From positions 354 to 64,353 of the forward strand of contig JAQTPI010000001.1 of the NCBI GenBank assembly GCA_028748975.1: DNA of 64,000 nt. The letters run 5' to 3'. Shown piece by piece: positions 11,806-63,428 of this stretch. Positions within the stretch are counted from its first letter, which is position 1; each line of letters opens with the position of its first letter. The stretch is from Patescibacteria group bacterium (lineage in GTDB: Bacteria; Patescibacteriota; Patescibacteriia; UBA2196). A model generated the notes under the pieces. It did no database searches, was not told the origin of the DNA, and saw only the letters and a list, made by a program, of their open reading frames with translations. The translations under genes were made by a program, and so were the position numbers.

Positions 11806-14742
11806 ATGTTTAATTTACCCACTAAAGAACAGGAAATTCTCAAGCTCTGGCAAGAGAATAATATTTTTGAAAAATCCCTGGCTAAAGACGCACCCAAGGG
11901 CGATTTTGTTTTTTATGACGGTCCGCCGTTTGCCACCGGCACCCCGCACTATGGTCACATCGTCGCCAGTTTAATGAAAGACATTGTGCCAAGATATTGG
12001 ACCATGAAGGGCTTTCGCGTGGAGCGCCGCTGGGGTTGGGATTGCCACGGTTTGCCGATTGAAAATATTGTGGAGGAAGAAATGGGCATCAAAAGCAAAA
12101 AAGATATTGAAAAAATTGGTATTGAAAAATTTAATGAAGCTTGCCACTCCAAAGTTTTAATGTACGCCGAAGAATGGCGTAAAGTTGTGGCCAGAATGGG
12201 CCGCTGGGTTGACATGGACAACGATTATAAAACCATGGATAAAGATTATATGGAATCGATTTGGTGGGTTTTTAAGGAGCTTTGGAATAAAGATTTAATC
12301 TACGAGGGCTACAAATCCATGCACATTTGCCCGCGCTGTGAAACCACTCTTTCACAGTCAGAGGTGGCCGAAGGTTATCGCGACACCAAAGACATTTCTG
12401 TCACTGTAAAATTTGAACTGGTTGATGAACCGGGAACTTTTGTTTTGGCCTGGACCACCACGCCGTGGACTTTAATGGGCAACGTGGCACTCGCGGTTGG
12501 TAAGGATGTTGAGTATTTTAGATTTAAAGGAAAAAATAAAAAAACAGGCGAAGAAATTATTTATATAGTTGCTAAAGATTTAGCCGCAAAAATTTTTGAT
12601 GTTAAAGACGGAAGAATTGCAAATAGATTTATTTATGATGATTTTGAATTTGAATGGAATGGCGCCTACTCGGGAAACACTTTAGCTCATAAATTTAAGA
12701 AGTACAAACCACTTTTTGATTATTATCAAGATAAAAATTTAGAAAACAAAGAAAATCTTTATACCATTCAAACGGCTGATTTTGTGACGACCGAGGATGG
12801 CACCGGCGTAGTGCATATTGCTCCGGCTTTTGGCGAAGACGATCTAAATTTGGGCCGTGCGAAAAAATTGCCGTTTATTCAGCACGTTGGCATGGATGGA
12901 AGGATTAAAGATGAAGTCAAAGATTTTGCCGGCTTGGAAGTCAAACCCAAGGACGACCCGACTGCCACCGACAAAAAAATTATAGAATTTTTGCAAAAGA
13001 AAAATTTGGTTTTTGCCACGGAAGAATACACCCACAGTTATCCGTTTTGTTGGCGCTGTGACAGTCCGCTTTTAAATTACGCCACCAGTTCGCTTTTTGT
13101 CAAAGTGGAAGAAATAAAGAAGCAGGCGCTAAAAACAGCTGAAAGAATAAATTGGGTGCCGGCGCACCTGAAAGAGGGTCGTTTTGGACAATGGCTGGAA
13201 GGCGCCAGAGATTGGTCAATTTCTCGTCAGAGATTTTGGGGTTCGGTCGTTCCGCTTTGGGTTTGCGATAAGTGCGGCGAGAAAAAAGTAATGGGTGGTG
13301 TGGAAGAACTGGAAAAAATAAGTGGCAAAAAAGTTGAAGATTTACACAAACATTATATTGATAAAATTACTTTCAAGTGTGAAAAGCATGACGGCATAAT
13401 GAAAAGAGTTCCCGATGTTTTAGATTGCTGGTTTGAATCCGGCTCCATGCCCTATGCCCAGATGCATTATCCTTTCGAAAATAAGGAAAAATTTGAAGCC
13501 AATTTTCCGGCGGAATTTATTGCCGAAGGCGTGGACCAGACTCGCGCCTGGTTCTATTATATGCATATTTTGGCCAATGGCTTGAAAAAAACCAATGCTT
13601 TCAAAAATGTCATTGCCAACGGTATTGTTTTGGCCGAAGATGGCAAAAAGATGTCCAAGAAATTGCGCAATTACCCCGACCCGATGGATTTAATGGAAAA
13701 ATCCGGTGCTGACACTATGCGTTATTATCTCTGCGCTTCGCAGGTGATGAAGGCCGACAATCTTTGTTTTTCCGAAAAAGACATGAAAGAGCAAACTCGA
13801 TTTTTCAACACGCTTTTTAATGTTTTGTCTTTTTATCAAATGTATGAAAATCAGTTTTCCGGAACAGAACTTTTTCAAGCCGACGCCAAACCGAAAAACA
13901 TTTTGGATAAATGGATTTTGGCGCGCCTTCACGAAACAATAAAAAAGATGACAGAAAAATTGGATGCTTATGACTTGCATGCTGTGCGCGAACTCCCGCT
14001 TTTTATTGACGAACTTTCCACCTGGTATGTCCGCCGATCGCGCGACCGGTTTAAGGGGGATGATGAAAAAGATAAAAACCAGGCCATTTTCACCCTGGGC
14101 AAGGTTTTGTTTGAATTATCAAAATTACTGGCTCCTTTCACTCCTTTTACTGCCGAGCATCTCTATCAAGAACTTGGTAAAAATTGTGGCAGTTTGAAAG
14201 AGTCGGTGCATTTGGAGGATTGGACTGAATATAATAAAAAACTAATTGACCAAAAAGTTTTGGACTACATGAGTGTCACGCACCAAGTGGTGGAGTTGGG
14301 TTTGGCCAAACGCGCGGAAGTTGGGATAAAAGTGAGACAGCCGTTACAAAAATTAACAATTAACAATCAACAATTAACAATAGAATATACAGATTTAATA
14401 AAAGACGAATTGAATGTCAAAGGGGTTGTTTGTGAAAAGGGAAGTGGGGAACTTGCCGTGGAATTAGATACCGAACTCACTGACGAACTTAAAGAAGAGG
14501 GAATTTTACGTGAATTGACCCGCACCATTAATGGCTTAAGAAAAGATGCCAAATTAACCATTGACGATTTTATTAAATTGGAATACAATACTACTGATGA
14601 ACAAATCAGCCGGGTTTTTGAAAAATACAGTGACGATCTCAAAAAATCAATTTTAGCCAAAGAAATCTCCAAAATAGAGGAGGATTTGGAGAAAGTAAAA
14701 ATCAATGAAGCTGAAATTGGTCTGAAAATCACTAAAATTTAA
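11806..14742 (+). CDS. ileS: isoleucyl-tRNA synthetase
   Basis: HIGH motif 'PHYGHIV' and 'KMSKKLRN'. The canonical start MFNLPTKEQEILKLW lies downstream of the repeat cluster. The ORF-track extension through the repeats is rejected. Confidence 0.9.
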   Translation: MFNLPTKEQEILKLWQENNIFEKSLAKDAPKGDFVFYDGPPFATGTPHYGHIVASLMKDIVPRYWTMKGFRVERRWGWDCHGLPIENIVEEEMGIKSKKDIEKIGIEKFNEACHSKVLMYAEEWRKVVARMGRWVDMDNDYKTMDKDYMESIWWVFKELWNKDLIYEGYKSMHICPRCETTLSQSEVAEGYRDTKDISVTVKFELVDEPGTFVLAWTTTPWTLMGNVALAVGKDVEYFRFKGKNKKTGEEIIYIVAKDLAAKIFDVKDGRIANRFIYDDFEFEWNGAYSGNTLAHKFKKYKPLFDYYQDKNLENKENLYTIQTADFVTTEDGTGVVHIAPAFGEDDLNLGRAKKLPFIQHVGMDGRIKDEVKDFAGLEVKPKDDPTATDKKIIEFLQKKNLVFATEEYTHSYPFCWRCDSPLLNYATSSLFVKVEEIKKQALKTAERINWVPAHLKEGRFGQWLEGARDWSISRQRFWGSVVPLWVCDKCGEKKVMGGVEELEKISGKKVEDLHKHYIDKITFKCEKHDGIMKRVPDVLDCWFESGSMPYAQMHYPFENKEKFEANFPAEFIAEGVDQTRAWFYYMHILANGLKKTNAFKNVIANGIVLAEDGKKMSKKLRNYPDPMDLMEKSGADTMRYYLCASQVMKADNLCFSEKDMKEQTRFFNTLFNVLSFYQMYENQFSGTELFQADAKPKNILDKWILARLHETIKKMTEKLDAYDLHAVRELPLFIDELSTWYVRRSRDRFKGDDEKDKNQAIFTLGKVLFELSKLLAPFTPFTAEHLYQELGKNCGSLKESVHLEDWTEYNKKLIDQKVLDYMSVTHQVVELGLAKRAEVGIKVRQPLQKLTINNQQLTIEYTDLIKDELNVKGVVCEKGSGELAVELDTELTDELKEEGILRELTRTINGLRKDAKLTIDDFIKLEYNTTDEQISRVFEKYSDDLKKSILAKEISKIEEDLEKVKINEAEIGLKITKI
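14351..14383 (+). repeat. in-frame 'aattaacaat' tandem repeat inside ileS (encodes INNQQLTI)
   Basis: 'attaacaattaacaatcaacaattaacaat'. The same nucleotide repeat is inserted in-frame in tatD (28703), the helicase (38088) and pheS (41467). Confidence 0.7.
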
Positions 14743-14763
14743 CAAGTCAAACGAGGAGGAAAA

Positions 14764-15400: not shown

Positions 15401-15456
15401 GTTTTTGGTGATAAGATTATTTTGTCGTTCCAACTTTCCAATAAACGTGCCGTTAT

Positions 15457-15571
15457 CCCCTCCTTTCGAAGGAGGGGTCGGCCGATACCAATCGGCCGGG
15501 GGTGGTTGTGGTGTTTTTACAACCCCTCCGGTCCCGAGGACTCGGGACCACCTCCCCTTCGAAAGGGGAGG
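15457..15571. mobile_element. ~115-bp MITE-like element with terminal inverted repeats 'cccctcctttcgaaggagggg'/'cctccccttcgaaaggggagg'
   Basis: A second copy at 52433..52548 has the same ends and a related core. In both copies the 3' terminal repeat 'ggggagg' serves as the SD for the next gene (recO, secE). Confidence 0.6.
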
Positions 15572-15579
15572 ATAAAAAT

Positions 15580-16236
15580 ATGTATTTCTCATTAAATTCC
15601 ATCATTCTCTCCCGCACCGCTTTCCGTGAAGATGATCTCCTGGTAAAAATCTATTCCCAAGAGCGCGGCAAGCTGACGCTCGTGGCGCGGGGCGCGAAAA
15701 AAATAAAAAGCAAATTGGCCGGACATCTGGAACCAATTTCTTTGTCATTTCTGGAAAGCGCGCGCGGAAAAAGTTTGGACCAGCTCATCGGCGCGCAAAT
15801 CATCAAAAGCTATGCCGGTATAAAAAACGATATTTTAAAAACCGCTTACGCCAATTATTTTTTGGAGCTTTTGGATGAACTCACTTTTGAAAACCACGCC
15901 GACCGCCGCGTTTTTGAATTAACCAGAAAATACCTTGACTTCCTAGATACCGCAGTCTACAATGATTTAGTCATCGGCAGAATTACGGCTGTTTTCAAAT
16001 TACTCTCATTTCTGGGTTTTAACCCGGCCCACAAAGCCGAACTTGGCTTTAAAAATGAAATAAATTATGTTGTCAGTAAGGGCCTAAGCGAAATCAAAAG
16101 AAATATAAAAATAATTTCAGTTCTTTCAAAATTAGATAAAATTCTCAAAGCCGAACTGGAGGAACACCTGCGCCAAAACCTAAAATCAGAGGAGTTTTTG
16201 AAAAATATTACTAATACAGGGGTGAAAGATGGATAA
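15580..16236 (+). CDS. recO: DNA repair protein RecO
   Basis: 'MYFSLNSIILSRTAFREDDLLVKIYSQERGKLTLVARGAKK' is the RecO N-terminal OB-fold signature. Confidence 0.7.
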   Translation: MYFSLNSIILSRTAFREDDLLVKIYSQERGKLTLVARGAKKIKSKLAGHLEPISLSFLESARGKSLDQLIGAQIIKSYAGIKNDILKTAYANYFLELLDELTFENHADRRVFELTRKYLDFLDTAVYNDLVIGRITAVFKLLSFLGFNPAHKAELGFKNEINYVVSKGLSEIKRNIKIISVLSKLDKILKAELEEHLRQNLKSEEFLKNITNTGVKDG

Positions 16237-16555: not shown

Positions 16556-17788
16556 ATGTTTGAGATACTCCACCAATCCAAAAAATCTTCCGCTCGGCGC
16601 GGAATTTTAAAAACCGCGCACGGCGCAATCCCGACGCCATTTTTTTTGCCCATTGCCACCAAGGGCTCGGTCAAAGCCCTTGCTTCTTCTGATCTAAAAA
16701 ATTTGGGCGCCGAAATTATTCTTTCCAACACTTATCACTTATATCTTCAGCCAGGGCTAAAAGTTCTAAAAAAATTTGGCGGTTTGCACAAGTTTATGAA
16801 CTGGCAGGGGCCAATTCTAACCGATTCCGGTGGCTATCAGGTGTTTTCTCTTGGCGCTGGCAAAAGAGAAAAGAAAGACGTCAGTTTTGTAAAAATTATC
16901 AAAGATGGTGTCAAATTCAAATCATTTCTTGACGGCAGTGAACATTTTTTTACACCCGAGAGTGTCCAAGAAATTCAAGACATAATCGGTGCCGATATTA
17001 AAATGGTTTTGGACGTTTGTTCTCCGCACCCTTGTTCTAAAAAGCAAGCGGCCAAAGATCTAGAATTAACCCACGAATGGGCCAAGCGGGCGCTGGAGTA
17101 CCAAAGAGATAAGAGATATGAGATAAGAGATAAGAATAACAAAAATCGATCCGCCAAATTGGCGGGCGAAATTCAAAATTCCCTTTTGTTTGGCATTGTC
17201 CAGGGTTCAACCTATAAAGATCTGCGCCTCAAGTCCGCCAAGTTTTTGAGCAAATTAAATTTCGATGGTCTAGCCATCGGCGGTTTGGCCGTGGGCGAAG
17301 AAAACAAAAAAATGTATGAAGTTTTAAAATATACCGTGCCCGAATTGCCAAAAAATAAACCGCGCTATTTAATGGGCGTGGGCAAACCGGAAAATATAAT
17401 TGAGGCAGTCAAACAGGGGATTGATATGTTTGATTGCGTTATCCCGACGCGCGAAGCGCGCCACGGCCGGCTCTATTTGTGGTGCCATCCTGAGCGAAGC
17501 CCGCTTCGGTCGCGAAGCGAGGCGAGCGAAGGACCTCATAGAAACATTACTAAGAAAAACTTCTATAAAATTATCAATATTAATAATGCCAAATTCAAAA
17601 ACAATACCAAGCCAATTGATAAAAATTGCTCTTGCGAATTCTGCCAAAACTACAGCGCCGGCTATTTACAGCATCTTTTTAAAGCTGGTGAGCCTTTGGC
17701 CTTGCGTTTGGCCACTTTGCATAATTTAAAATTCTTCCTTGACCTATTTTTTCAAATACGTTACGATATAAAAAAGGGCACTTTGTAA
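16556..17788 (+). CDS. tgt: queuine tRNA-ribosyltransferase
   Basis: 'LTDSGGYQVFSL' and the zinc site 'CSCEFCQNYSAGYLQHL'. Carries two in-frame repeat insertions (17103-17140 and 17483-17536). Confidence 0.85.
   Translation: MFEILHQSKKSSARRGILKTAHGAIPTPFFLPIATKGSVKALASSDLKNLGAEIILSNTYHLYLQPGLKVLKKFGGLHKFMNWQGPILTDSGGYQVFSLGAGKREKKDVSFVKIIKDGVKFKSFLDGSEHFFTPESVQEIQDIIGADIKMVLDVCSPHPCSKKQAAKDLELTHEWAKRALEYQRDKRYEIRDKNNKNRSAKLAGEIQNSLLFGIVQGSTYKDLRLKSAKFLSKLNFDGLAIGGLAVGEENKKMYEVLKYTVPELPKNKPRYLMGVGKPENIIEAVKQGIDMFDCVIPTREARHGRLYLWCHPERSPLRSRSEASEGPHRNITKKNFYKIININNAKFKNNTKPIDKNCSCEFCQNYSAGYLQHLFKAGEPLALRLATLHNLKFFLDLFFQIRYDIKKGTL
17483..17536 (+). repeat. palindromic repeat module inserted in-frame in tgt
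   Basis: 'catcctgagcgaagcccgcttcggtcgcgaagcgaggcgagcgaagg' encodes 'HPERSPLRSRSEASEGP'. It belongs to the same family as the intergenic 'gtcattccgagcgaagc...' modules. Confidence 0.65.
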
Positions 17789-21646: not shown

Positions 21647-22915
21647 ATGTATAAGAAGTATAAACTCTCAAACGGTACACGTGTAATCTTAGCGCCGCAG
21701 AAAAATACCAAGGCCGCCACGGTTTTGGTTTTGTATGGCGTGGGCTCGCGCTATGAAAAAGAAAGCGAAGCCGGCATCTCCCATTTTTTGGAACACGTGG
21801 TTTTTAAGGGCACAACCAAGCGGCCGAATACCCTGGAAATTTCTAGGGAATTAGATGCAATTGGTGCTAAATATAATGCTTTTACCGGTAAAGACCACAC
21901 CGGTTATTATGTCAAAGCCAATGCCGAGCATCTGGGTTTGGCTGTGGAAATTTTATCCGACATGCTTTTTAACTCCAAATTTGAGAGTCAGGAAATTAAA
22001 CGCGAAAAAGGCACAATTATTGAAGAAATAAATATGTTTGAAGATAACCCAAGTTTTGGTGTTAATCTTTTGCTTGATAATATAGTTTTTAAAAATAATT
22101 CTTTATCTCGTGATGAAGGTGGCACTAAAAAAACCGTGTCTGCCGTGACGCGCGCCAAAATCATAAATTATAGAAACACGCACTATCGGCCGGAGAATTG
22201 TGCCATCGTCATTGCCGGAAATGTTGACAATCAAAAAGCCAGAAGAATAATAGAAAAATATTTTGGCGGCGAAGCAAAAAAGAAAAAGAAACCGGATTTT
22301 GAAAAATTTAAAGAATTCCAAAAAGCACCGCAGATTAAATTGAAATACAAAAAAACCGAGCAAGTGCATCTAGTGTTTGGTTTCACTGGTCCCAAAGCGA
22401 CTGATAAAGATTTTATGGCGACGCAGATTCTTTCCGTAATTCTTGGCGGCTCCATGAGTTCGCGCCTGTTCATTAATATTCGCGAACGCTATGGCCTTTG
22501 TTATTATATTCGTTCTTCTTTTGACAGTTACCATGATGTCGGACTTTTTTCCATTACAGCGGGGTTGGATAAAAAAAGAATTTTTTTAGCCATTAATCTA
22601 ATTTTGAAAGAATTAAGAAAAATTAAACAAAAGGGAATTACCAAAGAAGAATTGAAAAAGGCGCAAGAATTTTTGAAAGGCCACATTATTTTGGAAATGG
22701 AAGATTCGGCCGCAGTGGCCGAATGGTTCGGCCGGCAGGAAATTTTGGTGCGCCAGACCAAAACACCGGAGCAAAAAATCGCGGAAGTTATGAAAGTGAC
22801 CAAAAATAAAGTAGACGCGATTGCCAGAAAAATTTTTCAGACCGAAAAACTGAATTTAGCTTTGATCGGCCCATACCGAGATGATAAAAAATTTAAAAAA
22901 TTATTAAAAATATAA
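21647..22915 (+). CDS. M16 family zinc peptidase (insulinase-like)
   Basis: 'HFLEHVVFKGT' is the inverted zinc-binding motif HxxEH. Confidence 0.7.
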   Translation: MYKKYKLSNGTRVILAPQKNTKAATVLVLYGVGSRYEKESEAGISHFLEHVVFKGTTKRPNTLEISRELDAIGAKYNAFTGKDHTGYYVKANAEHLGLAVEILSDMLFNSKFESQEIKREKGTIIEEINMFEDNPSFGVNLLLDNIVFKNNSLSRDEGGTKKTVSAVTRAKIINYRNTHYRPENCAIVIAGNVDNQKARRIIEKYFGGEAKKKKKPDFEKFKEFQKAPQIKLKYKKTEQVHLVFGFTGPKATDKDFMATQILSVILGGSMSSRLFINIRERYGLCYYIRSSFDSYHDVGLFSITAGLDKKRIFLAINLILKELRKIKQKGITKEELKKAQEFLKGHIILEMEDSAAVAEWFGRQEILVRQTKTPEQKIAEVMKVTKNKVDAIARKIFQTEKLNLALIGPYRDDKKFKKLLKI

Positions 22916-22928
22916 TTTAATAAATAAT

Positions 22929-23104
22929 TTCCAATAACCAAGAAACAATTTCCAAATAAGTTCCAAATACCAAATTCCAAATAATCATATTTTGAATTTT
23001 GGTTATTGAAATTTGTGGTTGTCCTTAGGACAACCATCCCGCAATTCTGCGGGATGCCAGCGAAGCTGGCATTTATTTGGAAATTGGAACTTGTATCTTG
23101 GAAC
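22929..23104. mobile_element. ~176-bp MITE-like element, copy 1 of 3
   Basis: Near-identical to 39031..39205 and 53443..53618. Three hairpins: 'ggttgtccttaggacaacc', 'cccgcaattctgcggg' and 'gccagcgaagctggc'. Ends 'gttccaaata...' and '...tatcttggaac' are inverted. Begins 14 bp after the M16 peptidase stop. Confidence 0.65.
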
Positions 23105-23116
23105 TTAAAAAATTTT

Positions 23117-24266: not shown

Positions 24267-25064
24267 ATGAATTATTTTATGTTGTATATAGTGGCGACTC
24301 CCATCGGCAATTTGGAAGATATCACCTTGCGCGCCTTGCGCATTCTGAAAGAAGTGGATTATATTTTATGTGAAGATACGCGGGTGACGGCGCGACTTTT
24401 GGCGCATTATAAAATTTACCCTGTCAAATCCACCACGGGTGGTTCGCCAGAGGCGAAATTTGACAGGGTAAAAGGGAAAAAACTAATTGCTTATCATCAG
24501 CATACCGACGAAAGAAAAATAAAAGAAATCGTGAAATTGGTGGAAAATAATAATGTGGCGCTGGTAACCGATGCTGGCACGCCGGGGATTTCCGATCCGG
24601 GGAATAGATTAATTAATGAACTTCTAACCCCCTTTAGGGGAGGTGGAAACGAAACCTCGGCTAAAGCCGGTAGGAATTTTCGAATAGAACCAATACCGGG
24701 CGCGTGCGCTTTAGTAACGGCTTTATCCATAAGCGGTCTGCCCACTGATAAATTTATTTTCAAAGGTTTCGTGCCACATAAAAAGGGGAGAGAAACTTTT
24801 TTGAAAGAAGTAATCGCCAGCGCTGAAACTGTGGTCTATTATGATTCGCCCTATAGAATAATAAAAAATTTGGAAAAAATTCGCGATTTATTAGCTGGCA
24901 TTCGCGACGGATTTGCGAAACCAAAGCATTTTATTGTCTGCCGCGAACTGACCAAAAAATTTGAAACCATCTACCGCGGTTCTGCCGAGGAAATTTTGGC
25001 AGAAATAAAAAAGGAGTTCCATGAGGGAACTCCGAAGGGTGAATTTGTGGTGGTGGCTGGATAA
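24267..25064 (+). CDS. rsmI: 16S rRNA (cytidine1402-2'-O)-methyltransferase
   Basis: 'LYIVATPIGNLEDITLRALRILKEVDYILCEDTR'. An in-frame repeat insertion around 24640 ('ccccctttaggggagg') encodes 'TPFRGGG'. Confidence 0.8.
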   Translation: MNYFMLYIVATPIGNLEDITLRALRILKEVDYILCEDTRVTARLLAHYKIYPVKSTTGGSPEAKFDRVKGKKLIAYHQHTDERKIKEIVKLVENNNVALVTDAGTPGISDPGNRLINELLTPFRGGGNETSAKAGRNFRIEPIPGACALVTALSISGLPTDKFIFKGFVPHKKGRETFLKEVIASAETVVYYDSPYRIIKNLEKIRDLLAGIRDGFAKPKHFIVCRELTKKFETIYRGSAEEILAEIKKEFHEGTPKGEFVVVAG

Positions 25065-28237: not shown

Positions 28238-28347
28238 TTACGTCATTCCGAGAGCCGATATTATCGGCTCGATGGAATCTTGGTCGCAAAGATCCCATCG
28301 CTCGCCTCGCTTCGCGGTCGAAGCGGGCTTCGCTCGGGATGACAAAT
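28238..28347. repeat. composite palindromic repeat ('cgtcattccgagagccgatattatcggctcgatggaatcttg...cgggatgaca')
   Basis: Nested hairpins. Related to 31981..32058. Confidence 0.7.
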
Positions 28348-28353
28348 TAATTT

Positions 28354-29238
28354 ATGCTTTTTGATTCGCATTGCCACCTCAATTTTTCCGTTTTTGCGGA
28401 AAATTATAGAGAAATAATCGCCGATTGCTTAAAAAAAGAAATCGGCGTTATTAATATCGGTTCGCAATTTGACACCTCCAAGCGCGCGGCCGAAATCGCG
28501 GCGGAATTTCCTAATAAAGAAATTTATGCCAGTGTTGGACTTCATCCGATTCATATTTCTGGCACCGAAGTTGACGATGAAGAGATAAAATTTAAGGGTC
28601 GCGAAGAAAAATTTGATGAAGAAAAATATCAGGAGTTAATTGATAATTATAAAAATAAAATAATTGCGGTGGGAGAAATTGGTTTGGATTATTGGCATAT
28701 ACCAATTAACAATCAACAATTAACAGTTAACAAAAAAGAAAACTGGAAAGAAAAACAAAAAGAAAGTTTTATCGCGCAACTAAATTTTGCGGTGAAAAAT
28801 AACTTACCGGTAATTTTACACGCGCGGGGCAGTAAGGAGAATTCGAACGATGCTTATGAAGATATGTTAAAAATTATCCAATTACAAATTACTAATTACA
28901 AATTACGGATTACTGGCGTCCTTCATTGTTTCGGCTCCAGTCGTAAAATCGCCCAGCAGTTTTTAGACCTCGGCTTCTACCTTGGTTTCACCGGCATCAT
29001 TACTTTCAAAAACAAAAACGTGGAAGAATTAAAAGAGGTGGTAAAAATGGCGCCACTTGATAAAATTTTGGTGGAAACCGACGCGCCCTATCTTTCACCG
29101 GAGCCCTTTCGTGGCAAAAAAAATACGCCACAAAATGTTGAATTTGTGGCGCGCCAAGTGGCGGAGTTGAAAAATACGACTTTTGAAAAAGTGTGCGAAC
29201 AAACAACCAAGAACATTGAAAAGGTTTTCAGGATTTAG
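28354..29238 (+). CDS. tatD: TatD family metal-dependent DNase/hydrolase
   Basis: 'MLFDSHCHLNF' and 'GEIGLDY'. In-frame 'aattaacaat' repeat insertion at 28703-28733. Confidence 0.85.
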   Translation: MLFDSHCHLNFSVFAENYREIIADCLKKEIGVINIGSQFDTSKRAAEIAAEFPNKEIYASVGLHPIHISGTEVDDEEIKFKGREEKFDEEKYQELIDNYKNKIIAVGEIGLDYWHIPINNQQLTVNKKENWKEKQKESFIAQLNFAVKNNLPVILHARGSKENSNDAYEDMLKIIQLQITNYKLRITGVLHCFGSSRKIAQQFLDLGFYLGFTGIITFKNKNVEELKEVVKMAPLDKILVETDAPYLSPEPFRGKKNTPQNVEFVARQVAELKNTTFEKVCEQTTKNIEKVFRI

Positions 29239-34597: not shown

Positions 34598-34660
34598 AAA
34601 ATTTATCCGCCGGAGCGTTTAAAGGGCTGTTAGGGAGCGCAGGCGGAGAAATTTTAAGTT

Positions 34661-34744
34661 GATAAAGATGTGGTGAAAATTACGGAAGGTGAAAGAAAAA
34701 TAGAACCGCTGGTACTAGAAAAACCAGTAGTGGGGGAGGAATAA
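34661..34744 (+). pseudogene. duplicated remnant of the rmuC 3' end
   Basis: 'gataaagatgtggtgaaaattacggaaggtgaaagaaaaatagaaccg...' is about 80% identical to rmuC codons at 34517-34597 (DKDVVKITEGERKIEP). Confidence 0.6.
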
Positions 34745-39023: not shown

Positions 39024-39030
39024 CAAAAGC

Positions 39031-39205: not shown

Positions 39206-39214
39206 TTTATTTTT

Positions 39215-45353: not shown

Positions 45354-45477
45354 TTCACGAATGCCTCGCGAATGCTCTCACTAATTTTCACAAATAAACT
45401 AACCTGTCATCCCGGGCTTGACCCGGGATCCAGAAAACAACTCCTAGATTCCGGCTCACGGGCCGGAATGACACAAA

Positions 45478-46422: not shown

Positions 46423-49065
46423 ATGCTACTCTCACTAAACTGGCTAAAAACCTACGTCGATTTACCAAAAAACCTGACTGCCAAAAAACTGGCGGCGGAC
46501 TTGACCATGACCACTTGCGAAGTGGAACGGGTGGAAAATCTGGCGGAAAAGTTTGACAACATGGTTGTTGGTAAAATTATTTCTATAAAAAATCATCCTA
46601 ATGCTGATAAACTTAAAATTGTCATGACGGATATAGGCAATCAGAAATTAGAAATCAGAAATCAGGGGCAAAAAAATATTGTTCAAATTGTCTGCGGGGG
46701 AACGAATCTACGCGAAAATATGCTCGTGGCGGTGGCCCTGCCCGGCGCCAAAGTGCGCTGGCATGGCGAGGGCGAGTCGGTGGTTATGGAAAAGGCAAAA
46801 ATCCGGGGCGAAGAATCTTTTGGCATGATTTGCGCCAGTAGCGAAATCGGTCTTGCTGATGTGTTTCCGGCTGAAAGCGATCGAGAAATTATTGATTTAA
46901 GCGGAATTAAGAAAATAAAAGCCGGACAAAACCTGGCCGAGGCTTTGGGCATGGACGATATGATTATTGAAATTGAAAATAAGACAATTACTAACAGACC
47001 TGACTTATGGAATCATCTTGGAATAGCGAGGGAGTTATCAGTCATATATAATACAAGTTTGAAGGCTAAAAATTTCCAATTTCCAATTTCCAATTTCCAA
47101 AAAAATTTCAAATCTAAAATTTCAAATTCCAAACTTGACATTCAAATCGATGATAAACAAGCTTGTTCCAGATATATTGGTTGTTTAGTAAAAAATGTTA
47201 AAGTCGCGGCGTCGCCGGAATGGCTGCAAAAAAGTTTGGCGAGCGTGGGCATTCGGCCGATTAACAACATTGTGGACATCACTAATTATGTCATGCTGGA
47301 CGTCGGACAGCCGATGCATGCTTTTGATAAAGCAAAGCTTTATCAAAAGCAATTTCCAATTTCCAAGATACAATTTCCAAACGATAAAAATATAAATATC
47401 ATTGTAAGAAAAGCCAAAAATGGTGAAAAAATAAAATCACTGGACGGAATAGAAAGAAAACTTGATGATTCAATGTTGATTATTGCGGACGCTAAAAAAC
47501 CAATCGCCATTGCCGGAATTATGGGCGGGGAGGAATCGGGCATTGATGAAAAAACAAATGAAATTATTTTTGAGGCGGCGAATTTCAACGCCATGTCAAT
47601 TCGGAAAACTTCGCAAAAATTGGGTTTGCGTTCCGAATCTTCCAATCGGTTTGAAAAAAATCTGGATCCGAATTTTGCCGAGCTGGCCATGGCGCGCGCG
47701 CTAAAATTAGTCAAAGAACTTTGTCCCGAAGCGGAAATTGTTGCTTACCAAGATGAAAATTTGGTGAAGGAGAAAAAAATAGTGATAAAAGTAGATCATA
47801 GTTTCCTTGAGAAAAAGATCGGGCAGACGCTTGATATGAAGGATATAGTAAAAAAACTAGAGAGCCTTGGTTTTAAGGTTGATACTAAAAAAGATAAAAA
47901 AGAAATAACGAAATATCGCGCCTCGTCCCGCAATTCTGCGGGACTCGGCGCTGGAAATAACGATATAATTTATCAAATTGAAGTTCCGAGCTGGCGGGCG
48001 ACTGGGGACATTTTCATTCCTGAGGATATAGTAGAAGAAGTAGCGCGGGTGATTGGTTATGACAATTTGGCAGAGCACAAAATTCTGGTGGAATTGGCAA
48101 AACCCAAAATTCAAATGGAGCAAATTTTGGAGAACAGAACCAAGAAATTTTTGGCTTTGGCCGGCGGTTTTAGCGAGGTTTTTAACTATCCTTGGGCCAA
48201 AGAAATTACCTTGAAAATACTTGGAAAAAATGATAAAATTATAAGTGTGGCAAACCCCCAAAGCGACGATAATTCGGCCCTGCAAAATAGCCTAATTCCA
48301 AACTTGCTTAAAAACACCGAAGACAATCTGCGCTATTTTGATGAGTTTAAAATTTTTGAATTGGCGCGGGTGTATCTGCCGGAATTTAATAAGATTGATA
48401 GTAAATTTCAAGACAAACTTCCCAATCAGCCAAAAATGTTGGCCGGTGTTGTGGTGACGCAAAAAGACAAAAACGCATTTTTGGAGCTAAAGGGAGTATT
48501 AGAAGGACTATTTAAGAAACTAGAAACTAGGAATTGGAAACTCGTCATCCCGAGCGAGCGGAGCGAAGCGATGGGATCTTTTTCATATTTAGATAAAGAA
48601 AAACTTTTGTCTATTGAAATCGACGGGAAAGAAATTGGTTTTATTGGTGAGTTGAAAGAAAATATTTATCGTCAGTTTGGTTTCAAAAACAGAAAAGTGG
48701 CGTTGTTTGAAATTAATTTTGATAAGTTGGTTTTGGCAGAGCAAAAAACGGAAGGTGTAAAATACGCGCCCTTGCCGCAGTTTCCATCAATAATTCGTGA
48801 TTTGGCGTTTGAATTGGATTGGAAAGTCAGGTGGTCTGAGATAGTCGAAGGGATTCTTCGCTTCGCTCAGAATGACAAACTCATTAAAAATGTGGAATTT
48901 CTTTCTGAGTTTGGACTGGGCGACAGAAAATCAGTGGCTTTCAGAATTGTCTATCAAGCCGACCGGACGCTTAAAGAGGAAGAGGTGGAAGTGGTGGAAA
49001 AGAAAATTGTGGAAATAATAAGTAAAAAATTTAACGCGCGGCTTCGCGCGGCGCTGGGGAAATAA
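46423..49065 (+). CDS. pheT: phenylalanyl-tRNA synthetase beta subunit
   Basis: Canonical start MLLSLNWLKTYVD, tRNA-binding and B3/B4 regions, C-terminal FDX-like domain. Several in-frame repeat insertions (46635-46665, 47071-47135, 47340-47395, 47925-47944, 48540-48585, 48845-48880). Confidence 0.9.
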   Translation: MLLSLNWLKTYVDLPKNLTAKKLAADLTMTTCEVERVENLAEKFDNMVVGKIISIKNHPNADKLKIVMTDIGNQKLEIRNQGQKNIVQIVCGGTNLRENMLVAVALPGAKVRWHGEGESVVMEKAKIRGEESFGMICASSEIGLADVFPAESDREIIDLSGIKKIKAGQNLAEALGMDDMIIEIENKTITNRPDLWNHLGIARELSVIYNTSLKAKNFQFPISNFQKNFKSKISNSKLDIQIDDKQACSRYIGCLVKNVKVAASPEWLQKSLASVGIRPINNIVDITNYVMLDVGQPMHAFDKAKLYQKQFPISKIQFPNDKNINIIVRKAKNGEKIKSLDGIERKLDDSMLIIADAKKPIAIAGIMGGEESGIDEKTNEIIFEAANFNAMSIRKTSQKLGLRSESSNRFEKNLDPNFAELAMARALKLVKELCPEAEIVAYQDENLVKEKKIVIKVDHSFLEKKIGQTLDMKDIVKKLESLGFKVDTKKDKKEITKYRASSRNSAGLGAGNNDIIYQIEVPSWRATGDIFIPEDIVEEVARVIGYDNLAEHKILVELAKPKIQMEQILENRTKKFLALAGGFSEVFNYPWAKEITLKILGKNDKIISVANPQSDDNSALQNSLIPNLLKNTEDNLRYFDEFKIFELARVYLPEFNKIDSKFQDKLPNQPKMLAGVVVTQKDKNAFLELKGVLEGLFKKLETRNWKLVIPSERSEAMGSFSYLDKEKLLSIEIDGKEIGFIGELKENIYRQFGFKNRKVALFEINFDKLVLAEQKTEGVKYAPLPQFPSIIRDLAFELDWKVRWSEIVEGILRFAQNDKLIKNVEFLSEFGLGDRKSVAFRIVYQADRTLKEEEVEVVEKKIVEIISKKFNARLRAALGK
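47071..47135 (+). repeat. 'caatttccaa' tandem repeat inserted in-frame in pheT
   Basis: 'aatttccaatttccaatttccaatttccaaaaaaatttcaaatctaaaatttcaaattccaaac' encodes 'NFQFPISNFQKNFKSKISNSK'. It resembles the arms of the 176-bp MITE. Confidence 0.7.
47925..47944 (+). repeat. MITE hairpin 'gtcccgcaattctgcgggac' inside pheT (in-frame, 'SRNSAGL')
   Basis: Identical core to the 'cccgcaattctgcggg' hairpin of the three MITE copies and of 56958. Confidence 0.7.
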
Positions 49066-49505: not shown

Positions 49506-51737
<2,232 letters not shown>

Positions 51738-52307: not shown

Positions 52308-52432
52308 CGAAGAAATAGTTAAACCTGTTTTATCCCTATTTGACAACCCAAACATGCCTGTGCTATCATTACAGCATAAGGCCTCCAGGGCCTTTTAAAA
52401 TCGATAAAAAATAGCTTTAAAAGCGGAATTTA

Positions 52433-52548
52433 TCCCCTCCTTTCGAAGGAGGGGTGCCGAGTGAAACGAGGCGGGGTGGTTGTAACTTCAACCACAACCC
52501 CTCTGGGTTTCGCTTCGCTCAACCCACCTCCCCTTCGAAAGGGGAGGA
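52433..52548. mobile_element. ~115-bp MITE-like element, second copy of the 15457..15571 family
   Basis: Terminal repeats 'cccctcctttcgaaggagggg'/'cctccccttcgaaaggggagg'. The 3' end supplies the secE SD. Confidence 0.6.
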
Positions 52549-52559
52549 TAACAAAACAT

Positions 52560-52742
52560 ATGCCCAACAAATTAATAACTTACATCAAAGATTCCAAAAC
52601 CGAACTTAAGAAAGTTGTTTGGCCGACCAAAAAAATGGTCACCAACCACACGCTTTTGGTCATTGGTTTTGTGCTGGCCATGGCCGTCTTTTTAGGCGCG
52701 GTGGATTTTGGATTGAATAAATTGATTTCAAGTATCATTTAA
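52560..52742 (+). CDS. secE: preprotein translocase subunit SecE
   Basis: 60 aa with 'KDSKTELKKVVWPTKKMVTNHTLLVIGFVLAMAVFLGAVDF'. Lies upstream of nusG. Confidence 0.7.
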   Translation: MPNKLITYIKDSKTELKKVVWPTKKMVTNHTLLVIGFVLAMAVFLGAVDFGLNKLISSII

Positions 52743-52886
52743 ACAAATAGACACAGATATTAGACAGATAGATACAAATACACAGATTCCTGTATTCCAG
52801 GTCAAGCCCGGAAAGACAAGGAGAATAAACCCGTGTATCTGTGAAAATCTGTAGTCAAACTGTGAAAATCTGTTTTTAATATAACT

Positions 52887-53432
52887 ATGCCACGACAAAC
52901 CCTAAATCAAGGCAAACGCTGGTACGCCATTCACACCTATTCCGGCTACGAAGACAGCGTGGTCCACAACCTCAAACAAAGAATCGAGTCCTTGGACATG
53001 CAGGACAGAATTTTTAATGTCTTGGCGCCCAAAGAAAAAAAGATTAAAATTAAAAACGGCAAGCGCTCGGTCGTGGAAGAAAAAATTTATCCCGGTTATG
53101 TTTTGGTGGAAATGGAAGTGACCGACGCCTCTTGGTATGTCGTGCGCAATACGCCGAATGTCACCGGTTTCATCGGCGCCGGCACCACGCCCTCGCCTTT
53201 AAGTGAAAAAGAAATTGAAGAAATGCAGAAACGCATGGGCATTGAAGAGCCGAAATATAAAATTGATATTTCCATCAATATGCCGGTCAGAGTGGTGGAC
53301 GGGCCCTTCAAAGAAATGGAAGGCAAAGTGGCGGAAATTGATGAAGCGCGCGGCCGCGTCAAAGTTCTTGTTTCCATGTTCGGCCGCGAAACTCCGGTGG
53401 ATTTGGACTTTTTGCAAATTAAGAAAATATAA
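52887..53432 (+). CDS. nusG: transcription termination/antitermination factor NusG
   Basis: NGN domain 'RWYAIHTYSGYEDSV' and KOW 'VRVVDGPFKEMEGKVAEID'. Confidence 0.9.
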   Translation: MPRQTLNQGKRWYAIHTYSGYEDSVVHNLKQRIESLDMQDRIFNVLAPKEKKIKIKNGKRSVVEEKIYPGYVLVEMEVTDASWYVVRNTPNVTGFIGAGTTPSPLSEKEIEEMQKRMGIEEPKYKIDISINMPVRVVDGPFKEMEGKVAEIDEARGRVKVLVSMFGRETPVDLDFLQIKKI

Positions 53433-53442
53433 CAGTAATAAT

Positions 53443-53618
53443 TTCCAATAACCAAGAAACAATTTCCAAATAAGTTCCAAATACCAAATTCCAAATAATC
53501 ATATTTTGAATTTTGGTTATTGAAATTTGTGGTTGTCCTTAGGACAACCATCCCGCAATTCTGCGGGATGCCAGCGAAGCTGGCATTTATTTGGAAATTG
53601 GAACTTGTATCTTGGAAC
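53443..53618. mobile_element. ~176-bp MITE-like element, copy 3 of 3
   Basis: Starts 10 bp after the nusG stop. Nearly identical to copies 1 and 2. Confidence 0.65.
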
Positions 53619-53700
53619 TTAAAAGATAAAGAATAAGAAATAAACGCGATTAACTTTGTCTTGCTTCTGGATAAAATTAATCTCCAATAAAGATGATTAT

Positions 53701-61859: not shown

Positions 61860-63428
61860 ATGACACAAACCAAATACAAACCAACAATCGGTCTGGAAAT
61901 TCACGTGGAATTGAAGACCAAGACCAAAATGTTTTGCTCCTGCCTAAACGAAACCTGGAAAATCGGGCAGGAAGAATTACCACCCAACATTAATGTTTGT
62001 CCGGTGTGTTTGGCGCACCCGGGAACCTTGCCTGTGCCAAACATAGAAGCAATTAAAGCCGTAATCAAAGCCGGCCTGGCCCTGAATTGCCAAATCGCGG
62101 AAAAATCAAAATTTGACCGCAAACAATATTTTTACCCTGACTTGCCCAAAGGTTATCAAATTTCCCAATATGACCAGCCGCTTTGCGAGCATGGGTCAAT
62201 TGAAATTAATGGCAAAAAAATTGGCATCACTAGAATTCATTTGGAAGAAGACACTGGCAAGCTTTCACACGTGAGTGACGGCACCTTGGTTGATTTTAAT
62301 CGCGCCGGCGTGCCGCTCATGGAACTCGTAACTGAACCGGATATTGAAAGCGGGGCGGAAGCCAAAGAATTTTGTCAGGAAATTCAGGCAATTTTCAGAG
62401 AGTTAAAAATTTCCGACGCGGATATGGAAAAAGGGCAGATGCGTTGTGAAGTTAATATCTCAATAAGCGACAAGGGACAAGAGACAAGAGACAAGAAAAA
62501 ATTGGGGACAAAGGTAGAAATAAAGAATCTCAATTCGTTTAGAACAGTGGAAAGAGCAATTGATTACGAAATTAAGCGTCAGACGGAAATTTTGGAAGCT
62601 GGTGAAAAAGTAGTTCAGGAAACGCGCGGTTTTGATGATGTCAAACAAAATACTTTTTCCCAGCGAATTAAAGAAGGTGCGGCTGATTATCGTTATTTTC
62701 CAGAGCCGGACATTCCGCCGATGGTCTTCCAACCCCCTTTAGGGGAGGTCGCGGAAACCTTGCCTAAAGGCAGTAAGAATTTTTTTATTGACATCGAAAA
62801 AATCAAGCAGGAATTGCCCGAAATGCCGCAGGCCAAAAGAAAAAGATTTGCGGATGAATATGGTTTTGCTTTGGCTGATGCCAAAATTATCACCGCCACG
62901 CCGAAGCTGGCGGACTACGCGGAACAAGTGATTTCCGAATTGCGCCAGTGGCTTTTGGATTCCGGCCAGTTTGAAGGTACCGAGGAAGAAATTTGGGCCG
63001 CCAATCGCGACAGAGCGGTAAAATTAGTAGCGGGCTGGCTCATTAATAAACTCGGCGGACTTTTAAACGCGCGCAAATTAACTTTAGCCGATAACACGAT
63101 TACGGCGGAAAATTTTGCCGAATTTATTACCATGATTTTCACGCGCAAAGTTTCTTCCACCAATGCCAATAAACTTTTGGAAAGAATGTTGGAAACCGGT
63201 GGTGATCCAAGTAATATCTTGGAAGATGAAGATTTGGGTGGGGGAGAGGATTTGGATTTGAATAAATTGATTGAAGAAATTATCAACAAAAACCCCGAGA
63301 CCGTGGCCCAGTTTAAAGCCGGCAAAACCGCGCTCTTAAAATTTTTCCTCGGTCAAGCGATGAAAGAATCCAAGGGCAAAGCCGATCCCGTGGAAGCAGA
63401 AAACTTACTACTTCAAAAATTAAGTTAA
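61860..63428 (+). CDS. gatB: aspartyl/glutamyl-tRNA amidotransferase subunit B
   Basis: 'KPTIGLEIHVELKTKTKMFCSC' and 'YQISQYDQPLCEHG'. The start codon lies inside the repeat end 'ctcaggATGACA'. In-frame repeats at 62463-62500 and 62725-62745. Confidence 0.9.
   Translation: MTQTKYKPTIGLEIHVELKTKTKMFCSCLNETWKIGQEELPPNINVCPVCLAHPGTLPVPNIEAIKAVIKAGLALNCQIAEKSKFDRKQYFYPDLPKGYQISQYDQPLCEHGSIEINGKKIGITRIHLEEDTGKLSHVSDGTLVDFNRAGVPLMELVTEPDIESGAEAKEFCQEIQAIFRELKISDADMEKGQMRCEVNISISDKGQETRDKKKLGTKVEIKNLNSFRTVERAIDYEIKRQTEILEAGEKVVQETRGFDDVKQNTFSQRIKEGAADYRYFPEPDIPPMVFQPPLGEVAETLPKGSKNFFIDIEKIKQELPEMPQAKRKRFADEYGFALADAKIITATPKLADYAEQVISELRQWLLDSGQFEGTEEEIWAANRDRAVKLVAGWLINKLGGLLNARKLTLADNTITAENFAEFITMIFTRKVSSTNANKLLERMLETGGDPSNILEDEDLGGGEDLDLNKLIEEIINKNPETVAQFKAGKTALLKFFLGQAMKESKGKADPVEAENLLLQKLS

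Follow-up and report, generated by a model that had tools for sequence, protein, structure and literature searches.

How do the same short DNA repeats come to lie in frame inside unrelated housekeeping genes of one bacterium? The question is raised by 64,000 nt of the genome of a Patescibacteria group bacterium (lineage UBA2196; GenBank assembly GCA_028748975.1, contig JAQTPI010000001.1, positions 354–64,353), hereafter called the window, in which an earlier note, made from the sequence alone, had claimed a proliferation of in-frame insertions resembling Rickettsia palindromic elements (RPEs). In this study, we identified ~29 repeat-derived segments, ~1.4 kb altogether, in frame in 12 intact genes of the 64-kb window. 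They fall into two classes, hairpin modules and tandem arrays of 7- or 8-nt units, and it is probable that both are short dispersed repeats that have spread at the DNA level through the genome of one Patescibacteria lineage, its housekeeping genes included. Every repeat string quoted in the earlier note was recovered, either exactly where it had been placed or a few bases away.

Repeat density and integrity of the sequence

The window has ~41% G+C, nearly all of its genes lie on the + strand, and its gene set is a housekeeping one: aspS, scpAB, ileS, recO, tgt, a glyS-like gene, rsmI, metG, tatD, rmuC, a UvrD/PcrA-like helicase gene, pheS, pheT, mraY, gyrB, secE-nusG-L11-L1, thyX and gatB. The closest named relatives of its PheT and helicase belong to Candidatus Kuenenbacteria (48–61% identity). 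A cyanobacterial origin, to which the heptamers might point, was rejected on the gene content. No tRNA and no Rfam family was found in the window, and a known-RNA or tRNA-linked origin of the repeats was therefore rejected.

Both repeat classes are in large excess over chance. The window holds 68 GC-rich perfect hairpins, against ~7 expected and 1–12 in Markov shuffles, and 30 hairpins of the repetitive extragenic palindrome (REP) type carrying a TGTC or CGTC tag, against 0.46 expected. Nine strict period-7 arrays were counted where 0.05 was expected, and two period-8 arrays where the expectation was 0; periods 6 and 9–12 gave 0 observed against 0–0.1. Tandem Repeats Finder returned ~30 period-7 rows for the window. 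The two classes are distributed differently. Two thirds of the GC-rich hairpins fall in the 22% of the sequence that is non-coding, and 24 of the 30 tagged hairpins are intergenic, with in-frame copies in the ATP-grasp gene, pheT (two) and gyrB, plus a degenerate one in tgt. Of the nine strict arrays, in contrast, eight lie within genes, which is near the coding fraction of the window (~78%). No class of host gene is favoured by the elements.

The relatives' loci that we compared were L003, L004 and L160 for the pheT region, L087, L088, L169 and L170 for ileS, and L001 and L002 for secE-nusG-L11 only. L089 is the same as L005, L090 is of the same strain as L003, and L003/L090 and L004/L089 are near-identical pairs. 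Among the matches listed in the genome and metagenome scans, L089, L090 and L160 are close to the window; the rest are mostly distant pheT loci and serve as background only. In a background set of 80 pheT loci of other bacteria (1.34 Mb, several other Patescibacteria included), only 0.29 arrays and 0.81 tagged hairpins were found per 64 kb, while the densities in L003 and L004 are comparable to that of the window. Taken together, these results indicate that the phenomenon is specific to this clade.

Repeats in a metagenome bin could be an artefact of mis-assembly or of the calling of open reading frames (ORFs). Some of the apparent segments are indeed of this kind: the ORFs of ileS (GTG 11686), pheT (ATG 46375) and the ATP-grasp enzyme (TTG 31967) seem to open with in-frame modules, but these lie upstream of the true starts and are ORF-extension artefacts, and one independent contig stops within the array at 8082. 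The sequence itself, however, is reproduced. Window positions 1066–8111 were recovered at 100% identity in an independent assembly (a 7-kb Logan contig, found with the 971-aa product of ORF 2264–5179), and L003/L090 (99.98% identical) and L004/L089, which are independent assemblies, have identical arrays and hairpins. Because independent assemblies give identical sequences, arrays included, mis-assembly is excluded; homologues moreover match the host proteins on both sides of every insert compared (the ATP-grasp insert lies outside this comparison), so that an artefact is a hardly credible explanation for the whole. As the earlier note had stated, the host ORFs are all open. They align with homologues, and the host genes are intact; the alignments of tgt, tatD, pheS, gyrB, pheT and the helicase are full or nearly full length, and that of the PLP (pyridoxal phosphate) enzyme is partial.

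Hairpin modules and composite elements

In the largest hairpin family an unpaired (T/C)GTC tag precedes a stem beginning with AT; the tag is TGTC in 25 and CGTC in four of the 30 tagged hairpins. Subfamily A1 consists of a perfect 8-bp AT-initiated stem, a 4–6-nt loop and a CCA tail (seven of nine parsed window copies, the other two having CTA), mostly in tail-to-tail dimers of ~70 nt. Across 11 parsed copies from the window and L003, 87 of 88 A1 stem positions are paired; positions 1–2 are invariant AT/TA, and positions 3, 6, 7 and 8 vary by fully compensatory swaps (TA/CG, GC/CG, CG/GC). Subfamily A2 is nested. Its outer stem has 5 bp (ATyCy/rGrAT) and its internal loop is GA/GA; the interior is a short loop in some copies and a variable, GC-rich inner hairpin in others, and the tail is CTC, CCC or CTT. 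The subfamily is exemplified by gyrB 51420–51463, pheT 48543–48577 and 48853–48877, tgt 17483–17532 and many intergenic copies. A duplication by nested insertion (GAGCGA...GAGCGA) was considered for such units and rejected, as comparison with the basic unit at 31984 revealed that the inner hairpin merely replaces or extends the loop. In the dimer pairs 9495/9539, 11678/11722, 32876/32918 and 45406/45448 the tags point outward and the tails face each other. The TGTC-tagged tail-to-tail dimers at 9494–9564 and 45405–45473 are intergenic, an A1 dimer occupies 11677–11746, and an intergenic dimer of nested CGTC/TGTC REPs (28241–28344) has as its right unit the counterpart of the tgt insert.

Further modules are CCCCTCCTT-NNN-AAGGAGGGG and its variants, sGCCGAT-NNNN-ATCGGCs, CATCCCGCA-ATTC-TGCGGGATG, and hairpins of the CCCCTCC type, and from such modules composites of ~130 and 191 nt are assembled. 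The ~130-nt composite is an overall palindrome and lies between genes at 15451–15579 and 52428–52555, the latter copy being orthologous to L003 15983–16105. The 191-nt element resembles a MITE (miniature inverted-repeat transposable element). Its first copy, intergenic at 22923–23113, has 41-nt heptamer-built arms that are 78% complementary and three central hairpins, with a predicted DNA fold of −47.9 kcal/mol (z = −9.4); the copies at 39024–39214 and 53437–53627 are 94% and 99% identical to it, and the nusG-L11 spacers of L001 and L002, which correspond to the site of the third copy, are without it. The repeat modules of the secE-nusG and nusG-L11 spacers differ completely between the window and L001/L002, a region that covers no insert-bearing gene. 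Over window 52500–53700 the NusG protein is identical to that of L001/L002, and most differences in the coding DNA are scattered and largely synonymous.

The earlier note had placed three named hairpin modules both between genes and in frame within them. All three were found in both settings, the genic copies lying in tgt, pheT, gyrB and the genes of the helicase, the PLP enzyme and the ATP-grasp enzyme, but rsmI and gatB carry other modules.

Two further features of the composites and hairpins concern gene ends. At the junctions 22905–22935, 39010–39040 and 53422–53450, the three 191-nt copies start 7–13 nt past the stop codons of unrelated genes (M16 peptidase, helicase and nusG), all of which end in the octamer AAATATAA; nusG of L001 ends in AAAATTTAA, which encodes the same residues as the octamer ending of the window. 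The common octamer may reflect a target preference, or the element may reshape the 3′ ends of genes. In addition, hairpins of the form CCTCCCCTT-CGA-AAGGGGAGG (15551–15582 and 52527–52562) pair a Shine-Dalgarno-like GGAGG with its complement 8–12 nt upstream of the recO and secE starts, and by their sequence could supply or sequester a ribosome-binding site.

Heptamer and octamer arrays

Arrays of 27–48 nt were found in ileS, tgt, tatD (two), the helicase gene (five, and two of octamers), pheS (two), pheT (four), gyrB and gatB. They are non-palindromic and are a separate, second repeat class that is not RPE-like.

Several arrays recur in unrelated genes. The AATTAAC-type array is present at 14351–14381 (ileS), 28703–28733 (tatD) and 38092–38128 (helicase); a search for it with ≤3 mismatches gave 6 matches, against 0 in 100 shuffles, and the ileS and helicase arrays are 94% identical over 33 nt. 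The earlier note had added pheS to this set; the pheS unit at 41468–41505 (AACAAAC/AATAAAC) is related to, yet distinct from, the AATTAAC array (82–88% identical). The repeat it had reported as common to gyrB and gatB was recovered as GACAAGA ×4 arrays (51375–51402 and 62465–62496) that are 92% identical over 36 nt, flanks included. Its 'caatttccaa' and 'aatcagaaa' repeats were likewise found, at 46639, 36891, 47071 and 47350; for the AATCAGA/AGAAATC arrays, pheT 46634 and helicase 36889 are 88% identical over 33 nt and pheT 46639–46666 is 93% identical to the helicase array at 36891–36920, and the pheT arrays at 47071 (AATTTCC) and 47350 (CAATTTC) resemble the arms of the 191-nt element. The octamer CATTAAAA does occur twice in the helicase gene (36274–36310 and 38044–38080), 36266–36310 being 91% identical to 38036–38080 over 45 nt. 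The copy described at the 3′ end of ORF 7784, on the other hand, is a related array (AAAGCATT ×4, 8082–8114, + strand) that lies either between genes or at the end of an ORF that is itself doubtful. Arrays in different genes have internal imperfections and sharp ends in common. An association between hairpins and arrays is occasional (gyrB, pheT 48515/48543 and the 191-nt element).

Arrays of this kind were also seen elsewhere. In L169, a perfect (TTACGAA) ×4 array (5279–5306) directly follows the ruvA stop codon. IMG/VR contigs of 55–58% GC (L189, L207 and L216 are among the loci cited) contain many (GAATTAC)n arrays, some as inverted pairs and some in frame in a 2865-aa ORF alongside CAGTAGT arrays, and the unit GAATTAC thus recurs far outside Patescibacteria. 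A phage vector was considered for the arrays and set aside: IMG/VR contigs with (GAATTAC)3 and (GACAAGA)3 do exist, yet their GC content is diverse and they are uninformative on transfer.

Segments within genes

Alignment with orthologues or solved homologues shows most of the intragenic segments to be lineage-specific additions. The earlier claim of lineage-specific insertion accordingly stood for tgt, rsmI, tatD, pheS, gatB, the PLP enzyme, five sites of pheT and the helicase, and fell for ileS, which aligns without a gap. All arrays below are on the + strand; for hairpins the strand is given where one was assigned.

The ileS array (AATTAAC ×4.4, 14351–14381, KLTINNQQLTI) is a resident array with no net insertion. 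In tgt, an AAGAGAT array (17104–17139), one deviation of which removes an in-frame stop, adds ~11 residues relative to the Z. mobilis enzyme, and a nested REP-type hairpin (HPERSPLRSRSEASEG, 17483–17532) lies in a 27-residue insert across which residues 301 and 302 of structure 6ygl are contiguous. This hairpin is 90% complementary to intergenic 28295–28344, and 93% identical over 44 nt to an intergenic copy. In rsmI, a 54-nt palindrome with a 13-bp outer stem and two inner hairpins (24417–24470) encodes ~20 residues absent from E. coli RsmI (5hw4) and has no second copy in the window; the two-hairpin module PFRGGGNETSAKAGRNF (24628–24680, +) adds ~12 residues and recurs at gatB 62733 in another reading frame, with a compensatory change in hairpin 2. 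The two tatD arrays belong to the AATTAAC family (28703–28733; 11-residue insertion relative to 2gzx, with a stop-removing T>C) and to the NAATTAC family (28867–28914, LQITNYKLRIT), the latter being found also in the ileS arrays of relatives and in the L003 pheT array.

The PLP-enzyme gene carries a composite multi-hairpin element of ~135 nt (31297–31440) that aligns end to end with 15451–15579 and 52428–52555. Its 45 residues are missing in 11 of 12 homologues, and a homologue with 71% identity has different hairpins at that site. The ATP-grasp gene has a tail-to-tail dimer of TGTC-tagged REPs (VIPAQAGIQKNGSWIPGQARND, 32875–32942), 26 nt of which are identical to intergenic 11719–11744.

The helicase gene is the site of a mosaic (36274–36428) in which the octamer array CATTAAAA is followed by several CCCCTCC-type hairpins on the + strand, ~50 residues in all, with a predicted local distance difference test score (pLDDT) below 50 at residues 178–232; it is common only to the nearest homologue, P0272, and 29 of its residues (36315–36401) have an occupancy of 0.11 in 39 homologues. 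Further segments are an AGAAATC array (36891–36920; pLDDT <50 at residues 392–398), a GATTTCC array (37086–37121) in a window-specific insert of 19–24 residues (pLDDT <50 at 448–460), a block of octamer, AATTAAC and ATTACTC arrays (38044–38177) in a loop that is variable in all homologues (pLDDT <50 at 772–810), and 9- and 20-nt repeats (ATTCGCAAA, 38648–38689, +) in another window-specific insert (pLDDT <50 at 973–990). Three of the helicase sites have <30% occupancy among homologues, and the hel-b and hel-d loops are variable. In pheS, the AACAAAC/AATAAAC array (41468–41505) lies in the N-terminal coiled-coil region with no net gap relative to P. aeruginosa PheS (4p71), and an AAACAAC ×5.6 array (41718–41756) lies in a 14-residue insertion relative to it (42 nt, six heptamers).

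In pheT, the window segments have an occupancy of ≤0.16 among 115 homologues. The AATCAGA array (46639–46665) has an occupancy of 0.03, and its site is empty in L003 and L004. The AATTTCC array (47071–47133) is like the arms of the 191-nt element; the CAATTTC array (47350–47380) is 90% identical to the arm at 22926–22956. A hairpin (GTCCCGCAattcTGCGGGAC, 47925–47944) with the same core as four intergenic copies lies in a 22-residue insert. An AGAAACT array (48515–48542), at the position of a GA(A/G)TTAC array in L003, directly abuts a CGTC-tagged REP (48543–48577, +, VIPSERSEAMG) that is common to L160 and absent from L003 and L004. A reverse-oriented TGTC-tagged REP (48853–48877, − strand, ILRFAQND) is present as identical DNA in L003 and as a variant in L160; its site is occupied in several homologues too, and L004 is without it.

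The gyrB gene has a perfect GACAAGA ×4 array (51375–51402), where L003 has ACGACNA ×4, and a CGTC-tagged nested REP (51420–51463, +) at the position of the 170-residue insert of E. coli GyrB. In L003, the outer arms of this REP are identical and the inner hairpin is swapped for a different perfect hairpin. A further insert of ~28 residues relative to E. coli (GyrB residues 257–287, 50340–50432) is charged, rich in Pro, Glu and Lys, and not repeat-like; it is also present, diverged, in L003 and may be a decayed older insertion. In gatB, finally, a GACAAGA-family array (62465–62496) adds 5 residues and the two-hairpin module PPLGEVAETLPKGSKNF (62733–62790, +) adds 14+3 residues relative to 3h0l.

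Reading frame and translation

The copies of one module in rsmI (PFRGGG...) and gatB (PPLGEV...) are read in different frames, and the REPs are used in four frames, three forward and one reverse. Together with the occurrence of identical modules between genes, this indicates that they are DNA-level elements and not protein motifs.

Are the segments translated? GC-rich hairpins inside coding sequence superficially resemble the yeast mitochondrial 'byp' elements, and the rRNA genes of Patescibacteria are known for insertions that are removed; both facts speak for inserts that are cut from the mRNA or skipped by the ribosome. However, ~29 of ~29 segments keep the host frame and are free of stops, whereas frame and stops are irrelevant to byp-like elements. 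In five arrays a perfect unit would create an in-frame stop (AATTAAC three times, AAGAGAT and AGAAACT), and all five deviate from the unit exactly there, the deviation in ileS being the only one in that array. Since neither frame-keeping nor stop removal would be needed if the segments were skipped, bypass or excision is very improbable, and the sequence argues strongly that the repeats are translated as extra loop residues of intact host genes. The peptide LVIPSERSEAMGSFSYLDK is among the predicted host-insert junctions.

In AlphaFold models, the inserts of PheT and the helicase are predicted as low-confidence coil. The PheT model (mean pLDDT 89) has coil dips at residues 71–90, 211–240, 311–320 (pLDDT 49), 491–510 and 711–720, which include every insert, the dip at 71–90 being that of the 46639 array and the one at 311–320 that of the 47350 array. 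In the helicase model (mean pLDDT 71), the segments below 50 include all five repeat-derived regions.

Cassette turnover among relatives and proposed mode of spread

The same pheT loops hold different cassettes in related genomes. At 47071, where the window has an AATTTCC array, L004 has a GACAAGA array and L003 no array; at 47350 the CAATTTC array of the window corresponds to an AACAACA array in L004 and a GC hairpin in L003; and at 47925 the CCCGCAATTCTGCGGG hairpin of the window corresponds to a GACAAGA array in L004 and an octamer array in L003. One unit may occupy several loci of a genome, as AATTAAC does in ileS, tatD and the helicase gene of the window, GACAAGA in its gyrB and gatB, and GACAAGA, twice, in pheT of L004. 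A hairpin insert in L004 pheT is 91–95% identical to intergenic hairpins of the window, while the host genes are just 76–90% identical. DNA-level comparison of pheT with L003 and L004 further revealed that filled sites replace several host codons. The term 'in-frame insertion' used earlier is therefore right as to frame and DNA level and too simple otherwise, given that host codons are replaced, no target duplication is visible and the cassettes differ from genome to genome.

Spread of the two classes could have come about by copying through a trans-acting transposition system that recognises hairpins, or by ectopic gene conversion between copies. Purifying selection would let through only in-frame, stop-free events in tolerant loops, which would explain why the same few loops are reused with an array, another array or a hairpin in different genomes. 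Some resident sites, such as the ileS array, the pheT ILRFAQND REP and the gyrB site, would be old, their content being overwritten or homogenised in a genome-specific manner, so that several loci of a genome come to have one unit. Rather than being adaptations, the elements are most likely passengers, either selfish or close to neutral.

A number of points weigh against this account, among them the ileS site. Its KLTINNQQLTI aligns gap-free with ELRITNYELR, ELRVTGYELQ and RLTVNNLQLT of relatives, and in each of the five genomes read the DNA there forms a heptamer array, the unit being AATTAAC in the window, GAGTTAC in L087 (whose IleRS has 85% protein identity to that of the window), TTAACNN in L088, AATTANG in L169 and GAATTAY in L170. 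ELRITNYELR, which is common among the relatives, is the exact translation of (GAATTAC)n. The period-7 signal exceeds the expectation from peptide and codon usage in each of the five genomes (P = 0.0001–0.028), and no length variation was seen at the site in 13 of 16 sequences. The array is thus old, in frame and constant in length, and its unit changes as a whole. At least this array is resident and not inserted, and arrays could then arise and be homogenised in place by slippage. Furthermore, the ORF lists and a Pfam scan of unknown ORFs revealed no transposase in the window, and no Y1 transposase (RAYT) among the ORFs so scanned; no target-site duplication was found at the three 191-nt copies or between filled and empty pheT sites; and L003/L090 and L004/L089, the only near-identical pairs, show no presence/absence difference at strain level. 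Movement is thus read from the phylogenetic distribution only. The presence of (GAATTAC)n in unrelated viral contigs of 30–70% GC fits a general mutational bias toward heptamers. The study is built on a single 64-kb window and a few partial relatives, and translation and surface exposure of the inserts are predicted from sequence logic and models.

Some of these points favour an origin in place without mobility, in which heptamer arrays arise by slippage, hairpins by local inverted duplication, and the similarity between loci is convergence. Besides the fixed-length ileS site with its differing units, the viral contigs and the lack of observed target duplications, among the long simple repeats of prokaryotes those with heptamer units are reported to be commonest, and slippage has been proposed as the cause (Mrazek 2007, as cited in PMC4679880), and the T>C change that removes the stop lies in a different unit in tatD than in ileS, possibly marking independent events. 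Slippage in place is plausible for the arrays. As an account of both classes it is unlikely: the dispersed arrays share imperfections and sharp boundaries over 33–45 nt (the helicase octamer pair, ileS/helicase and gyrB/gatB), the hairpin modules clearly form families with identical copies inside and between genes, and ongoing slippage predicts variation both in the length of the ileS array, which is constant, and in copy number, which is the same in independent assemblies.

Alternatively, a clade-wide system that copies or homogenises repeats (a recombinase, a transposase specific for hairpins or arrays, templated repair or a reverse-transcriptase process) might keep rewriting fixed permissive loops from a shared cassette pool. 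Sites are conserved over >40% protein divergence while their content is genome-specific and common to several loci. We nonetheless regard such a dedicated system as improbable, to about the same degree as an origin in place.

The elements might also be kept for a function, either as RNA or DNA structures (in mRNA stability, ribosome pausing, Shine-Dalgarno/anti-Shine-Dalgarno sequestration or protein binding) or as surface loops in symbiosis. Compensatory changes keep the hairpin potential even in coding DNA, at the cost of the peptide; the period-7 structure of ileS persists beyond the protein constraint; in the CCCCTCCTT...AAGGAGGGG hairpins, two of which lie just upstream of the starts at 15580 and 52560, one arm is Shine-Dalgarno-like and the other complementary to it; and RNA-level roles have been proposed for REPs in the literature. 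Yet sister genomes have unrelated cassettes at a given site, intergenic modules turn over fully between strains with identical NusG, and the inserts lie in unstructured, low-confidence loops of unrelated enzymes with no preference for a class of host gene. Maintenance for function is thus a still weaker candidate, and we doubt it strongly.

Comparison with known repeat systems

Work attributed to Ogata and colleagues in 2000 is said to have described RPE-1 and other Rickettsia palindromic elements as palindromic repeats in frame in conserved genes; a summary of them is given in PMC3733652. The window resembles this situation in its in-frame palindromic repeats in conserved genes, which are open in most frames, are presumed to be translated as surface segments and leave function intact. 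Here, too, orthologue and PDB alignments place the insertions in frame in conserved genes where the fold can accommodate them, and AlphaFold models give low-confidence coil at every insert of PheT and the helicase. The window modules differ in being shorter and combinatorial and in coexisting with non-palindromic heptamer arrays, and they occur in an ultra-small bacterium that is free-standing or episymbiotic, where the Rickettsia host is an intracellular alphaproteobacterium.

A more specific likeness is to the superfamily of CGTC REPs, to which Rickettsia conorii RPE-4 and RPE-6 as well as Neisseria dRS3 belong (Di Nocera, De Gregorio & Rocco 2013, PMC3733652). These REPs are defined there by an unpaired CGTC tag (TGTC and CCTC allowed), an 8–9-bp stem with A-T and T-A as first pairs, a 4–5-nt loop and a short unpaired tail, mostly CCA. 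They form mainly head-to-head dimers, tail-to-tail ones being rare, and are listed for five phyla; they are mostly intergenic, with a minority in frame in genes that include tRNA synthetases and repair or replication genes, and have no dedicated transposase (PMC3733652). The tagged hairpins of the window have the tag, the 8-bp stem initiated by A-T and T-A, the short loop, the CCA tail, frequent dimers, heterogeneous stems, a mostly intergenic location with a minority in frame in genes, and no dedicated transposase close by. They differ in that the dimers are tail-to-tail, where those of the paper are mainly head-to-head (an organisational rather than a defining trait), in loops of 4–6 nt, in the large nested A2 subfamily, whose 5-bp outer stem is a variant, and in a much higher intragenic density. 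Judged by sequence features, the tagged hairpins match the definition of CGTC REPs and represent a new host for a known kind; the phylum is new to the list, Patescibacteria being unmentioned in the available part of PMC3733652. The RPE parallel drawn in the earlier note can be upheld for these hairpins, by analogy, through the placing of RPE-4 and RPE-6 in CGTC families in that paper, but not for the non-palindromic heptamer and octamer arrays.

REP and REPIN elements, which are mobilised by RAYT tyrosine transposases (PMC3116915, PMC3733652), share with the window hairpins their short stems in inverted dimers, high copy number and presumed single-strand hairpin recognition; the window tag, however, is (T/C)GTC and not GTAG, and no RAYT or IS200/IS605 gene is present in the window. 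Enterobacterial RU/ERIC-type small mobile sequences can be intragenic, although this is rare and mostly at gene ends (Delihas 2007, PMC2759123). They are likewise MITE-like intergenic repeats with open frames that at times extend or interrupt coding sequence, and the window differs from them by its many internal insertions in core enzymes. Among MITE traits, terminal inverted repeats are present in the 191-nt element and overall palindromy in the ~130-nt composite.

For the arrays, the nearest known repeats are heptanucleotide long simple repeats, namely the STRR of cyanobacteria and the TAACTGA repeats found in Beggiatoaceae, Cyanobacteria and Bacteroidetes, which are mainly intergenic and often lie just upstream of start codons (PMC4679880). 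Both kinds consist of tandem 7-nt units in 2–6 copies, form many dispersed sets and have particular units that scattered lineages share, and head-to-tail 7-nt units of ≥3 copies are in excess in the window. Here, in contrast, eight of nine strict arrays are in frame in housekeeping genes, and at least one site is length-fixed across deep divergence while its unit changes; the copy-number instability expected of slippage was not seen at the ileS site or between independent assemblies of the same strains. Small dispersed repeats within heptamer arrays and mini-transposons have reportedly been described in Nostoc punctiforme by Elhai and colleagues in 2008. That system shares with the window very small hairpins, compensatory changes, tandem heptamers and MITE-like composites, and differs from it in sequences, phylum and the merely occasional association of hairpins with arrays in the window. 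An incomplete literature search found nothing linking REPs, MITEs or heptamer repeats with Patescibacteria, which is weak evidence of novelty.

Neighbouring genes and gene boundaries

Repeats also touch the ends of annotated genes. The REPs upstream of ileS (11686), the ATP-grasp gene (31967) and pheT (46375) are free of stops, which gives rise to the spurious N-terminal ORF extensions WIPGQARND, SFRAKRWNL and SFANAQDD, and the apparent ATG start of scpA (8781) comes from the reverse complement of a REP tag (ATGAC; window 8756–8785). The last 69 nt of rmuC (34514–34582) recur with 75% identity at 34658–34726, 144 nt downstream and past the stop codon, as a remnant duplication.

In related lineages, some UvrD-like helicase orthologues (P0277, P0280, P0285, P0309 and P0388) are 1343–1421 aa long and have Hint and intein-splicing Pfam domains, indicating that inteins occur in the same gene. 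IleRS of L088 (109–3087) is called as two adjoining ORFs of 446 and 528 aa; the gene could be split or frameshifted, or the sequence could contain an error. Directly upstream of pheT, L003 has a gene (9611–9964) with bAvd and 23S_rRNA_IVP Pfam domains that is not at that position in the window; bAvd is an accessory protein of diversity-generating retroelements.

Implications

The window is a denser, two-class version of the situation in Rickettsia, and its in-frame heptamer arrays, whose sites are conserved while their units are specific to each genome, are more unusual than its hairpins. Should the pattern extend to the whole genome, the core enzymes of a streamlined symbiont with ~1 Mb of DNA would contain repeat segments, all translated, by the hundreds. 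For annotation of the candidate phyla radiation (CPR), this means that ILRFAQDD, IPAQAGIQ, WIPGQARND, ELRITNYELR and similar peptides come from reading through repeats and are not motifs, and that starts are mis-called inside REPs; structure prediction and phylogenetic markers of CPR proteins are affected by repeat segments as well. Arrays at fixed sites with genome-specific units offer a test of concerted evolution or ectopic conversion against protein constraint, and they bear on the old question of why 7-nt units dominate prokaryotic tandem repeats. The lineage is a clear test case for the persistence of selfish DNA under genome reduction and, should a dedicated system indeed keep rewriting these loops, it would reveal a mobile-element lifestyle adapted to life inside coding sequence.

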